Assembly: GCA_002011115.2 (NCBI GenBank)
Contig: MTME02000085.1
Location: 1 to 56,053 of the forward strand
From: Candidatus Pyrohabitans sp. JdFR-17
GTDB taxonomy: Archaea; Hydrothermarchaeota; Hydrothermarchaeia; Hydrothermarchaeales; BMS3B
DNA length: 56,053 nucleotides
Direction of reading: 5' to 3'
Both the position numbers and the translations under genes were made by a program. Positions 16,962 through 19,929 of this stretch are shown piece after piece. The notes under the pieces are model-generated. The model was not told the DNA's origin and did no database searches. It saw only the letters and a list, made by a program, of their open reading frames with translations. Numbering within the stretch: the first letter of the stretch is position 1; each line of letters starts with the position of its first letter.

Positions 16962-18977
16962 TTAACTTTCGGCGCCAAGCACAACGTCGCCCTCTGCGAG
17001 AGCTTCTGAATCGCGAACCCAGCGAATCAGACCAAGGGTAACCCTGGCCACAAACCACAGGAAGAATAGGGTGAGAAGTGTAAGGTAAACCTTAAATGCT
17101 CTTTCCACAGTGCGCTTTCCTTTTGTGAGCTCCTCCAGCCTTGACTGAATAAGCTCTGCCTCCCCCCTCTCGCCAGCTTTTTCGAGCAAAGACTTTGCTT
17201 CCTCAACGCGGGAGATAGCTGAGTCGTAGTGGGAAATAACTGCCTCGTAGTGGAAAGGGTTGATGACAAAGGAAGCCTCTTTTATATTGAAGCTGAGTCT
17301 CCTAGCTGCGGCCACCTCCTTTTCGGAGCTTTTAAGCAGGACCGCCGCTTCAGTAAGAGCTTCATAGTACGCCCGCTCCATCTCCTCCTGCTTTGAGGCG
17401 TACTCCCTCACTTTCTCCTCATCTCCTAGGAGAGAATAGAGCGTCTTAAGCCTCCTGTAGTCGAGGGTAGCACTGCGGTAGTCCATTTTCTCCTTTCCAA
17501 CCCGCTTTTCCAGAGCCTCTGCTACCTCGCGTGCCTCTCTGCTCCACACATCCTCAAGCGCCTCAACTGCAGGTATAGCATGCTTTTTAAGACTTTTGTC
17601 CTCCAAGCTCTCACTGCCTATTTTCGCCCTGTTCAGACTGCTTTTTGCAAGTATGATGCGCTCAACGCGCTCGTCCAAGGGCTTGCCATTGAGGTCTGAG
17701 AAGATGTTAATGAATGAACTAACCCCACTGTACACCGACATGACCATCGCTATCTCCCTGAGCTCTGTTACACCCTTCGAAGCGGCTATCAGCTCGCGAA
17801 GATTCTGCACCGTTTCCTGATAGGGCAGCGACGGAAGCTTGGCTAAGGAGCGCTCCGCCTCCTCGAGGCCAGGGAAGTACACCGTAGCTTCAGCCACAAT
17901 CTCCGCGCTTCCTGCATACTTAGTGGCGAGCGCAAACACCCAGTTCTTTTTGCCCAGGCTCGCATCCGGAGGCAAGAGCAGAGTAAAGTTTATCGTTGCA
18001 TTGCCTCCCGGAGGGATGTAGTTAACCTGAGAGTAGGCTACCCATCCCTCTTCACCACTCACCTGAGATATGCTCAACCCTTCAATGGGGGTGTAGCCCC
18101 CTACCTCTGAGATTGTAATGCTCGCCGTAGCTGTGTCCCTGTCCACCTCAAAAGTTAAACTGCCGAAGTCTATCTTGGCGCTGGAAAGCGCCATCTCAGG
18201 CTTGGGAATGGTGTAGTTGGCCTGCTCAAGCGTCGCCACTTGAACATTGTAGTCCTTTACAATCCTGGGGGTAACCCAGTAGTCTCCTGGTCTGAGATAC
18301 CTCTCCGGCACCTGAATTTTTACCTTAATACTCTTAGACCCTCCAGCGGGCACGTCTCCCACACCTGTGGTATAACTTAGATTAACAGGACCCGTCTTTG
18401 AGAGGTAGAGCGAGACGTTGCTTGCGCCAGCGTAGCCAAAAGTCTCCCTCACAGTGAGAGTGCGCTCAAAGCTTTGCCCCGCTCTGAGCTTGCCCCACTC
18501 TGCAAGGTCCCAGGTAGCTTCGAGCGTCGCAGGCGGGTGGTCCACATTTATTGTGATGTAGAATTCGTGCAGCAATGGGTGGACTCCTACTTTGGTGATA
18601 TAGGTGTAGTTGCCCTTAACCTCAAGCTTTGCCCCATAGCTACCCTCAGCCACACTGGGAGGAGCGCGGAAGGAGATCATGAGATACGAGCTGTCCTCCG
18701 GCTCAACCCTGAGATAGTTCTTCTCCAGTACAACACTAATGCCCTTATCCGCTGCCTCACCTGAGAGCTTTGCCTCAAGGTTTGAGAGGATGGCAGCGCT
18801 TTCATTGTCCGCATTATAAAACTTCAGGGTTAAGTTTGTTTCAAAGTAGGTGACCTCATTCTTGGGCTTGTCGAAGTCGAAATCCACCTCGCTATAGCCA
18901 AAGCGCGCCTCCACGAGAGCGCTCACCGGCGTTGTGAGGAGCAGGAGCATAACAAGAATAGCACTCAGGCAACGCAT
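16962..18977 (-). CDS. Exported Ig-like + helical protein with C-terminal TM anchor
   Basis: Signal peptide MRCLSAILVMLLLLTTPVSA, beta-rich repeats, helical region, TM and short tail. Confidence 0.8.
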   Translation of the reverse strand: MRCLSAILVMLLLLTTPVSALVEARFGYSEVDFDFDKPKNEVTYFETNLTLKFYNADNESAAILSNLEAKLSGEAADKGISVVLEKNYLRVEPEDSSYLMISFRAPPSVAEGSYGAKLEVKGNYTYITKVGVHPLLHEFYITINVDHPPATLEATWDLAEWGKLRAGQSFERTLTVRETFGYAGASNVSLYLSKTGPVNLSYTTGVGDVPAGGSKSIKVKIQVPERYLRPGDYWVTPRIVKDYNVQVATLEQANYTIPKPEMALSSAKIDFGSLTFEVDRDTATASITISEVGGYTPIEGLSISQVSGEEGWVAYSQVNYIPPGGNATINFTLLLPPDASLGKKNWVFALATKYAGSAEIVAEATVYFPGLEEAERSLAKLPSLPYQETVQNLRELIAASKGVTELREIAMVMSVYSGVSSFINIFSDLNGKPLDERVERIILAKSSLNRAKIGSESLEDKSLKKHAIPAVEALEDVWSREAREVAEALEKRVGKEKMDYRSATLDYRRLKTLYSLLGDEEKVREYASKQEEMERAYYEALTEAAVLLKSSEKEVAAARRLSFNIKEASFVINPFHYEAVISHYDSAISRVEEAKSLLEKAGERGEAELIQSRLEELTKGKRTVERAFKVYLTLLTLFFLWFVARVTLGLIRWVRDSEALAEGDVVLGAES

Positions 18978-18978
18978 G

Positions 18979-19929
18979 CTACGCCCCCACCAGTTCATTG
19001 CCAAGGTAGCAGTCATACGTATCCCTCTCCCAGCTTAGAATTCTGCTGTGGATGTACACCGAGAGTAAGGTCAGGGTTAGAGACACAATGGTAAAGAGCA
19101 CAAGAATCTTCTTCCTAGTTGTGGAGTAGATTTCATCAGCCTTAACATAACTCTCCTCCACCTGTATCAGCTTCTCCACCTCGCTGTGGAGCTGATAAAG
19201 CTCTTTAGCTTTAACGAGGCTTATTCTGGCTTCTCTAGCCAGAGAGTAGGCGTCCACAAATCCAGGGAAGTCGTCGCCTAGCTCCTGTGCGCGGGTGAGC
19301 AAATCCAAGGCCTCGCTCAGATAACCTTCCGCTTCCATTATGTCGGCGATATACTTCTCTTCAAGGCTTTGCTTCCTCACCTCTAGGCTTTTCGCCTGCA
19401 GAGCATCTGCTGCCTCGTAGCTGGCTATAGCGAGATCAAGGTTTGCAAGCTTAGCTCGTGTGCTCTCTGCCTTCTCCGCCCTGTCCTCGAAGATTAAACC
19501 CTGGGAGAGAAGGAAGCTCTCCCTTCCATGCTCAGCCGCCTGCACCGCATCCTGGGCGAGAATTCCCAAACCGGAGCTGGAGGAGCGCATCGCAGAGATA
19601 AACTTCTGGGACTCGATTGCCCTAGCTATGCCCTCCCTCTGCGATCCCATCTCCGCGCTTCCCACGAGGAGGTAGGCATTGTGCATAGCTTTGAGGAAGT
19701 CAAGGGATGAAGAGGCAAAGTTTACAAGCTCCCTGCTGCAAGCTGTGCGCTCCTGGGAATAAATCAAAAGCAGTACATCCTGCTTCACCTGGGCCAGCTC
19801 CGAATACGCTGCGAAAGCTGGAGAGGTGAATCCCCGAAGCTCCGCGAGTACTGCAGAGCACTCCTGAGCATGAGCCGCAGGGAGCAGCATAATCTCAAGG
19901 GATAGAAGAAGCACCAGCCTCGTGTTCAT
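18979..19929 (-). CDS. Exported helical protein with C-terminal TM anchor
   Basis: Signal peptide ending AHA, all-helical body, TM and short tail; 1 bp before the next start. Confidence 0.8.
   Translation of the reverse strand: MNTRLVLLLSLEIMLLPAAHAQECSAVLAELRGFTSPAFAAYSELAQVKQDVLLLIYSQERTACSRELVNFASSSLDFLKAMHNAYLLVGSAEMGSQREGIARAIESQKFISAMRSSSSGLGILAQDAVQAAEHGRESFLLSQGLIFEDRAEKAESTRAKLANLDLAIASYEAADALQAKSLEVRKQSLEEKYIADIMEAEGYLSEALDLLTRAQELGDDFPGFVDAYSLAREARISLVKAKELYQLHSEVEKLIQVEESYVKADEIYSTTRKKILVLFTIVSLTLTLLSVYIHSRILSWERDTYDCYLGNELVGA

Follow-up and report, generated by a model that had tools for sequence, protein, structure and literature searches.

In the stretch of DNA analysed here (the window, 56,053 nucleotides of contig MTME02000085.1 from Candidatus Pyrohabitans sp. 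JdFR-17), two neighbouring minus-strand genes, which we call A and B, encode exported membrane proteins that end in the same short motif. We read this ending as the conserved juxtamembrane tail of an unnamed family of type-I membrane proteins, with A and B as paralogues in a six-gene module that also encodes two tubulin-like proteins, and we propose that the tails dock to a cytoplasmic component; we give this reading a probability of about 0.6. The parts of the two genes are as follows (TM, transmembrane):

16962..19016, minus strand: gene A, 684 amino acids as listed.
17889..18911, minus strand: N-terminal ectodomain of A, with weak, sub-threshold Ig-like matches (Pfam/NCBIfam).
16965..17888, minus strand: B-like module of A (helical ectodomain, TM segment and tail), residues ~377-684, from profile alignment.
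17025..17096, minus strand: TM segment of A, residues 641-664, from Kyte-Doolittle hydropathy.
16965..17024, minus strand: tail of A, RWVRDSEALAEGDVVLGAES, residues 665-684, predicted cytoplasmic.
18979..19929, minus strand: gene B, 316 amino acids, with a signal peptide, an all-helical ectodomain with two invariant Cys, a TM segment and a tail.
19042..19107, minus strand: TM segment of B, residues 275-296, with the hydrophobic stretch at 275-293 by Kyte-Doolittle hydropathy.
18982..19041, minus strand: tail of B, ...SRILSWERDTYDCYLGNELVGA, residues 297-316, predicted cytoplasmic.

Translated from the minus-strand open reading frames (ORFs), the C-terminus of A is ...LIRWVRDSEALAEGDVVLGAES (tail codons 16965-17024) and that of B is ...ILSWERDTYDCYLGNELVGA (tail codons 18982-19035). 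A first-pass annotation of this DNA had noticed that both end in W-x-R-D-x6-G-[DN]-x3-G-A after a single C-terminal TM helix. We find the same, with identical spacing of R3, D4, G11, [DN]12, G16 and A17 counted from the W, and both tails had been placed correctly to within one codon. The pattern W.RD.{6}G[DN].{3}GA occurs only in A and B among the 10,123 closed six-frame ORFs of at least 60 amino acids in this 1.62-Mb, 83%-complete genome, and 0 times in 20 residue shuffles. A looser pattern lying no more than 25 amino acids from the C-terminus again retrieves only A and B (shuffle mean 0.55).

Orthologues of B were found in 21 of 41 related genomes and orthologues of A in 23, with identities down to 26-29% for B and 28% for A. 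They keep a core of the motif, aromatic-x-x-D-x6-G-[DEN]-x-hydrophobic, which takes the form [WFY]-x-x-D-x6-G-[DEN]-[VIL]-[VIL] in A and W-x-x-D-x-x-[DE]-x-x-L-G-N-E-L-[VIM] in B; R3 and the terminal G-A of the longer motif are restricted to the genus. In the 20 aligned B orthologues W300, D303, L309, G310, E312 and L313 are invariant and N311 is kept in 90%. Six of the 20 invariant columns of B fall in the 14-residue tail core, as against 12 of 253 columns in the ectodomain, where the two Cys are among those that never vary, and 1 of 22 in the TM segment; entropies are 0.99, 1.91 and 1.89, respectively. In the tail of A, D and G are invariant in 22 orthologues (columns D315 and G322 of alignment A3) within the pattern [WFY]-x-x-D-[ESD]-x5-G-[DEN]-[VIL]-[VIL]. 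The same orthologues also share an invariant Arg inside the TM segment of A (residue 658, ~17043-17045, in FVARV; A3 R304), for which B has no counterpart, the profile alignment placing a 4-residue gap there. The first-pass annotation had supposed a conserved motif, and throughout an archaeal order the orthologues of A and of B do keep it. Every synonymous codon occurs at the invariant tail residues (six for each Leu, four for Gly), and codons vary at the conserved residues of the A tail too; selection therefore acts on the protein and not on a gene overlap or a ribosome-binding site.

Profile alignment explains the common spacing. When the last 330 amino acids of A were aligned with the whole of B in hhalign, the match had a probability of 97.7% and an E-value of 2.1e-12 over 282 columns; it persisted without the TM segment and tail (7.1e-9, 236 columns), and the TM segment and tail alone gave 1.8e-4. 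All controls, one reversed and 10 column-shuffled for the ectodomain and one reversed for the full module, gave E >= 0.07. The B profile also retrieves A orthologues in genome searches (2e-9 to 3e-6). On this evidence A and B are paralogues, evidently ancient duplicates, with A carrying an extra N-terminal ectodomain before a complete B-like module. The two ectodomains had been described as different, which holds for the extra N-terminal part of A and fails for its membrane-proximal ~270 amino acids, which are homologous to the ectodomain of B. Since A carries a complete B-like module, the tail spacing is inherited and not convergent.

Both proteins begin with a signal-peptide-like N-terminus. 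As listed, the ORFs overlap, the last 12 codons of B lying over the first 12 of A; the N-terminus of A, MRCLSAILVMLLLL..., reads as a signal peptide, and its true start may be Met14 at 18977, one base past the stop of B. The N-x-S/T sequons of A (8 of 8, residues 61-343) all lie in the N-terminal ectodomain, before the TM segment. The weak matches of that ectodomain, to NPCBM_assoc (4e-4) and choice_anch_D (4e-5), lie below cut-off. For B no Pfam or NCBIfam family matched. Its AlphaFold2 (AF2) model is all-helical with a mean predicted local distance difference test score (pLDDT) of 90.3, and a single helix, residues 251-314, passes through the TM segment into the tail, where pLDDT is 65-76. 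Foldseek of this model against the PDB returned nothing at E <= 1e-3 (the best hit, 6grj_E, has an E-value of 0.048 and a TM-score of 0.16, and no relationship was taken from it). The ESM Atlas gave only one cluster of hypothetical archaeal proteins, with a score of 0.86. Longer fused forms of B, which could have hinted at a partner, were not found at E <= 1e-3, which is weak evidence. Because a signal peptide, a single TM segment, sequons confined to the ectodomain and invariant ectodomain Cys go together, the tails are predicted to be cytoplasmic. A and B would then be type-I membrane proteins in which the tail is the only cytoplasmic part of each.

The genes around A and B, among them a three-gene operon (Tub1, tether and Tub2) beyond the spacer, form the rest of the module:

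14422..16956, plus strand: 844-amino-acid bitopic protein, convergent on A, with a signal peptide, a beta-propeller ectodomain and a TM segment at residues 528-546.
19930..20000, no strand: divergent AT-rich spacer of 71 base pairs, with two TATA-like boxes and GGTGA before the Tub1 ATG.
20001..21200, plus strand: Tub1, CetZ-like tubulin-superfamily GTPase, 399 amino acids (PF00091).
21203..22570, plus strand: TM and coiled-coil protein (the 'tether'), 455 amino acids.
22575..23873, plus strand: Tub2, divergent tubulin-like protein, 432 amino acids (PF00091 at 1e-6, below cut-off).

In 24 of the 41 relatives both a strong Tub2 orthologue (E <= 1e-96) and the tether are present. All but one of these genomes (23) also have A, the exception being 62% complete, and 21 have B, two further misses having their A match at a contig end. 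The other 17 genomes, which include all 6 of one family (f8) and all 3 of one genus (g2), have none of A, B, tether and Tub2; their weak Tub2 matches (E >= 1e-10) are other tubulin paralogues. The 844-amino-acid protein, B, A, Tub1, the tether and Tub2 constitute a six-gene set that is present or absent together in the 41 relatives. Among 23 GTDB loci found via Tub1, all 17 that have upstream sequence carry B in divergent orientation to Tub1, with A behind it where the contig is long enough; where B was not seen (6 loci), the upstream sequence is shorter than 420 nucleotides. Because these genomes are kin, the counts describe a pattern and not independent trials.

The same set occurs on haloarchaeal plasmids. 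A halophile-looking member of the B family (P0051) matched 5 PLSDB plasmids, carried by Natrinema sp. SYSU A 869, Halobaculum halobium, H. roseum, H. magnesiiphilum and Halobacterium salinarum R1 (pHS2), and Tub2-like and B-like queries from Natrinema retrieved the identical 5 of 72,556 plasmids. All five matches lie in one syntenic operon that runs Tub1-like ... tether-like, Tub2-like, 844-like, B-like, A-like. The order of genes, given for the four loci that reach upstream (the Halobaculum halobium stretch begins within the ten-gene series), is:

Genes 1-5: an FtsZ-annotated gene; an unknown gene (PH-domain); a second FtsZ-annotated gene; a gene of 83-95 amino acids; a gene of ~340 amino acids.
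Genes 6-10: ~690 amino acids; ~400 amino acids; ~915-986 amino acids, 'carboxypeptidase regulatory-like'; ~330 amino acids; 749-912 amino acids.

The haloarchaeal clusters contain three tubulin-family genes. Similarity to the proteins of the window, by blastp against the Natrinema cluster only and by profile searches over all five clusters, is as follows:

Tub1: blastp 38-41% identity, 6e-46; profile 5e-83 to 2e-34, the weakest being the split H. halobium ORFs.
Tether: blastp 1e-6, partial.
Tub2: blastp 34% identity, 7e-73, to a 408-amino-acid tubulin-like protein of the Natrinema plasmid cluster.
844-amino-acid protein: blastp 7e-3; profile 2e-21 to 1e-17, to the ~915-986-amino-acid protein in all five clusters.
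B: blastp none reported; profile 6e-15 to 7e-11.
A: blastp 5e-13; profile 2e-23 to 1e-10.

The module is therefore common to Hydrothermarchaeales and haloarchaeal megaplasmids, across two phyla. Haloarchaeal A tails hold the spacing as Y-x-[RQ]-[DE]-x6-G-[DEN]-F-L (YLRDARESVSGDFLV, YVQDAEAATTGEFLP, YIRETREAASGNFLL), and the B tails are looser (WRRTYEAARVGSVV, WAEDVDGSKVGRIV, WADDAQAAANDRIV).

The plasmid clusters also differ among themselves and from the window. On the Halobaculum halobium plasmid (NZ_CP126159.1) the Tub1-like and A-like genes are each split in two frames, with the A tail in a separate ORF, and a second place on the same record matches both B and Tub2, so one of the copies may be decaying. 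In the four other clusters a large PQQ/beta-propeller-type protein and an AAA-family ATPase are encoded convergently on the opposite strand, and the 83-95 and ~340 amino acid genes inside the operon encode two small membrane proteins; none of these four has a counterpart next to the cluster in the window.

Beyond these loci, the B profile retrieved 113 proteins at E <= 1e-3, 59 of them at E <= 1e-10, from 1.84 billion representatives, each of the 113 standing for a cluster at 50% identity and nearly all being 300-430 amino acids long. In 77 of the 113, aromatic-x-x-[DE]-x6-G lies within the last 40 amino acids. The 108 tails that could be anchored give the following counts:

Positions 1-10: W1 101, D4 85, D/E7 60, L/V10 88.
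Positions 11-14: G11 89, N/D/E12 70, L/V/I14 102.

To the resulting signature, W-x-x-D-x-x-[DE]-x-x-[LV]-G-[NDE]-x-[LVI], B is a full match, and A matches at W, D, G, [DEN] and the hydrophobic position and not at L10. The family is otherwise recognised by a signal peptide, an all-helical ectodomain of ~250 amino acids, one TM segment and a tail of ~20 amino acids, all of which B has and into which the C-terminal module of A fits. All names seen among its members are 'hypothetical protein', and labelled sources are Methanosarcinales, Micrarchaeota and Altiarchaeales. A and B hence belong to a family that has neither a name nor a Pfam or NCBIfam model. A metagenome scan with one member (P0114, from a 'Methanosarcinales archaeon' cluster) gave no confirmed locus.

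What might the tails do? Since they are the only parts of A and B that would reach the cytoplasm under the predicted topology, they could form the inner contact of the system: A and B would pair via their homologous modules, and their tails would couple an extracellular assembly to cytoplasmic parts. Candidate counterparts are the cytoplasmic domain of the 844-amino-acid protein, the tether and the tubulin-like filaments; we consider the first of these at least as good a candidate as a tubulin or the tether. Complex prediction for A (residues 355-684) with B (22-316) weakly supports pairing, with a score of 0.51 (runs 0.56, 0.49 and 0.51) against 0.01 for the best of 3 controls; partner pLDDT was at least 82, and the runs agreed in at least 70% of contacts. 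In calibration, 58 of 80 solved complexes attained the mark, as did 2 of 110 mismatched pairs; those attaining it with 0.60 or less were only 7 of the 80 solved complexes and both mismatches. Given that the genes overlap and are paralogous, we regard pairing as likely but unproven.

Several observations weigh against our reading. In the band of the A-B score, predictions fail more often than they succeed, unless the pairing was to be expected from the outset. The docking role would be deduced from topology and conservation alone, and in the AF2 model the tail of B is a mere continuation of the TM helix, which is compatible with a purely structural role. The tail of A as a whole is not better conserved than its ectodomain (entropy 1.78 versus 1.85), with only D and G invariant, and some haloarchaeal B tails lack D4 or G11 (AWRRTYEAARVGS, KWADDAQAAANDR). 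Among 400 archaeal genomes sampled, matches to the B profile came from 22 of the order and, outside it, from 1 of ~360 (G384). The best B-like gene of that genome is an orphan with a canonical tail, EWKKAMYDVSLGDEILGKV; the ORFs of 150 amino acids or more listed within ~6 kb on either side include no tubulin gene. On another contig of G384 a second B-like gene adjoins a Tub1-like gene (27% identity, 6e-41), with a further tubulin-like gene nearby, but this copy has a degenerate tail without the G, SYRKDKKSTEIIKIF. An A-like protein of 713 amino acids in an Altiarchaeales-labelled cluster ends in YNRDTLEANLGNVV. On the only two contigs that a metagenome scan with an A-like member (P0109) gave, its gene is flanked by a propeller-TM gene and a gene read as ribosomal protein L30e, with no tubulin gene, although contigs of 5-6 kb are too short to judge tubulin linkage. 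The first-pass annotation had named co-occurrence with the tubulin pair as a test, and A and B do co-occur with it in the 41 relatives and on five of five haloarchaeal plasmids. Loss of the motif in orthologues, or its independence of tubulin loci, would have refuted the annotation; in the main neither is seen, with the orphan of G384 and the A-like contigs as two partial exceptions. Because of these, we describe the tubulin link as strong but not absolute at the level of adjacency.

The main rival to docking is that the tail is a structural clasp: it would extend the TM helices, and its W, D, G and hydrophobic face would hold an A-B dimer (or B-B, where B occurs alone) at the inner surface. 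The tail would then have no cytoplasmic partner, and coupling to the tubulins would run through the 844-amino-acid protein and the tether. The single helix in the AF2 model of B fits this idea, as do the invariant positions (300, 303, 310 and 313; 309 and 312), which would fall on helical faces, and the Gly that is equidistant from W in both paralogues. The weak model support for A-B pairing (0.51, set against 0.01 for the best control) is also in its favour, and the orphan B-like gene keeps the motif with no tubulin gene adjacent. However, six invariant residues in 14, two of them acidic, exceed what is usual for a dimer seam, and the TM segment of B is itself poorly conserved. Moreover, the complex prediction gave no contact list, so that it lends no support to a tail-tail contact. 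On balance we think a purely structural tail unlikely, though it is the alternative we take most seriously.

It is tempting to speculate further that A, B and the 844-amino-acid protein make up an envelope-spanning, receptor-like complex in which the tails act as a clasp-and-dock switch, linking surface events to the assembly of two-tubulin (CetZ-like plus divergent) filaments at the inner face of the membrane. We offer this tentatively and would not expect it to hold in full. If true, archaea would have their own equivalent of the outside-in/inside-out coupling of integrins, one ancient enough for Hydrothermarchaeota and Halobacteria to have it in common and sufficiently mobile to travel on megaplasmids.

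The first-pass annotation had suggested a direct form of docking, in which the tail is a peptide that binds Tub1, Tub2 or the tether; it would then fix filaments to the membrane in the manner of the FtsZ anchors, with reversed polarity. The strict co-occurrence and adjacency with the tubulin operon would be expected from this, nothing of A and B but the tail is predicted to be cytoplasmic, and the conserved C-terminal segments of Tub1 and Tub2 themselves could be the counterpart. Yet the tether and the 844-amino-acid protein both have large cytoplasmic domains (298 amino acids in the latter), either of which could hold filaments without A or B, and in G384 it is the tubulin-adjacent copy of the B-like gene that has the degenerate tail. 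We therefore find direct binding doubtful and rather improbable as the specific form of docking.

It is very improbable that the tail serves in sorting or processing, as a signal that an archaeosortase, rhomboid or lipid-anchoring type of system recognises and removes. The annotation had raised sorting together with docking, and a short conserved C-terminal motif beside a TM segment in exported proteins does invite the comparison. PGF- and PEF-CTERM-type signals have their motif directly before the C-terminal TM helix, followed by a short basic cluster. Here the order is the opposite, TM segment and then motif, and the tail is acidic, with a net negative charge; at E <= 0.1 neither tail is matched by any Pfam or NCBIfam model, a scan that takes in sorting-signal models if the libraries contain them. 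Such signals usually mark many substrates per genome, whereas only 2 of the 10,123 ORFs of the 83%-complete genome carry this one. We thus rejected the sorting reading, in agreement with the annotation, which saw no match to the PGF-, PEF- or CGP-CTERM patterns. Chance, or a nucleotide constraint from the overlap of the 3' end of B with the start of A (12 codons as listed), deserves next to no credence and was rejected on the shuffles (0 versus 2 observed) and the synonymous-codon usage, the conservation moreover persisting in orthologues that overlap by only ~8-14 nucleotides, in the tail of A, which overlaps nothing, and in the orphan and haloarchaeal homologues.

Docking to a cytoplasmic component thus remains our preferred account, and the neighbouring genes show what such a component could be. 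Tub1 matches PF00091 at 5.1e-25 (89 bits versus a cut-off of 33) and has the GGGTGSG loop. Its best solved relative is 4b46_A, over its full length (1e-18, residues 3-389); the entry is titled 'cell division protein FtsZ', but we take it to be a Haloferax CetZ. Against FtsZ chains the match is confined to the GTPase core, and TIGR00065 (ftsZ) gives 86 bits versus a cut-off of 295. Tub1 is 95% identical in a near-identical locus of 'Candidatus Pyrohabitans jungbluthii'. Its C-terminal segment is highly conserved, LLTYRPNQISRL...SL[RK]VLEEYEKDF, followed by a variable acidic end, and might serve as a helix for binding a partner. The end of Tub2 is a coiled coil and then, near the C-terminus, ...[EKRD]-W-G-F in nearly all Hydrothermarchaeales orthologues seen (KWGLSS in the window copy), a motif that its haloarchaeal counterparts lack. 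In the 844-amino-acid protein, 16 of 18 sequons lie before the TM segment. Its 298-amino-acid cytoplasmic part is modelled as a transthyretin-like beta-sandwich followed by an eight-helix domain (AF2 residues 550-844, pLDDT 86), of which Foldseek recognised the beta-sandwich only, the helical half having no match.

The spacer between B and Tub1 carries TTTATATT on the plus strand and TTTTATATTT on the minus strand, TATA-like boxes at plausible distances for two archaeal promoters, and GGTGA 6 nucleotides upstream of the Tub1 ATG. Convergent on Tub2 lies a gene for a 614-amino-acid exported protein (23870-25714, minus strand) with a NosD/parallel beta-helix region and two CWB2 cell-wall-binding repeats; a similar gene also follows Tub2 in a locus of the same genus (L046). 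Just beyond the cluster, at ~24000-38000 of the window, G+C falls from ~0.51-0.55 to 0.40-0.47, which suggests a region of different origin or function. The same genome has five further tubulin-family genes on contigs C36 (2938-6451), C50 and C90, with a tandem of three on C36; we presume them to be FtsZ1/FtsZ2 and canonical CetZ-type paralogues.

To our knowledge, the connection of archaeal tubulin relatives other than FtsZ to the membrane or envelope is largely unknown. The locus offers a defined, conserved parts list for it: two tubulin-like GTPases and four membrane proteins, together with a protein family of 113 clusters at 50% identity. As A and B would show only a ~20-residue tail to the cytoplasm, its W, D and G make a small mutable target for studying the coupling of tubulins to the envelope. 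Halobacterium salinarum is a genetically tractable model organism, and because the module is present on pHS2 of strain R1 (genes OE_RS12025 to OE_RS12070), bench study would be possible without culturing a Hydrothermarchaeote.

One of the closest known systems is the CetZ cytoskeleton of Euryarchaeota (Haloferax volcanii CetZ1/CetZ2), Tub1 being a full-length relative of 4b46_A. CetZs have been reported in Hydrothermarchaeota (PMC9871819) and linked to cell-surface functions (PMC9856176). The neighbourhoods given in the parts of these two surveys available to us feature type IV pili, F420/nucleotide synthesis and a sugar epimerase and do not include the present one, in which Tub1 is accompanied by four membrane proteins and another, divergent tubulin-like protein; in the same text, PMC9856176 has no occurrence of 'Hydrothermarch' and PMC9871819 none of 'transmembrane'. 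The 'Halo.Tub'/CetZ-like proteins of Halobacterota are described as several tubulin copies lying quasi-tandem among unknown, mostly coiled-coil genes (Santana-Molina et al. 2023, PMC9871819). That description fits the three tubulin-family genes of the haloarchaeal clusters, and Tub2 or its haloarchaeal counterpart would be a candidate for Halo.Tub; the available main text names no membrane proteins, link to a Hydrothermarchaeota cluster or tail motif.

The FtsZ anchors FtsA, ZipA and SepF, the last being the archaeal one (PMC8178401), are alike in concept: a tubulin-family filament is tied to the membrane via a short conserved peptide-protein contact. They differ in that the tubulin homologue carries the conserved peptide while the anchor faces the cytoplasm, whereas here bitopic proteins with large ectodomains carry it, and the Pfam/NCBIfam scans indicated no sequence relation between these anchors and the proteins of the window. 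FtsZl1 operons share a divergent tubulin-family gene inside a membrane-protein operon; according to the portions of Makarova and Koonin (2010, PMC2875224) at hand, that gene lies among mostly membrane-associated unknowns, with a proposed role in membrane remodelling, and it is vWA-domain proteins, kinases, a GTPase and OmpA-like proteins that define the operons. Pfam families of these four kinds were not found in the 7 window and 10 Natrinema cluster proteins scanned.

The likeness to integrins is an analogy of mechanism only. Integrin alpha and beta chains are type-I heterodimers with large ectodomains and short tails, in which conserved motifs next to the membrane hold the two chains together and provide the link to the cytoskeleton; there is no homology with A and B, they belong to another domain of life, and adaptor binding is not indicated here. 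The literature searched on archaeal CetZ, FtsZl1 and the tubulin relatives of H. salinarum yielded no description of this operon. A tubulin-family cytoskeleton with dedicated membrane partners is thus known in kind, and what is new is a six-gene module, found across two phyla, that is built on an unnamed protein family.

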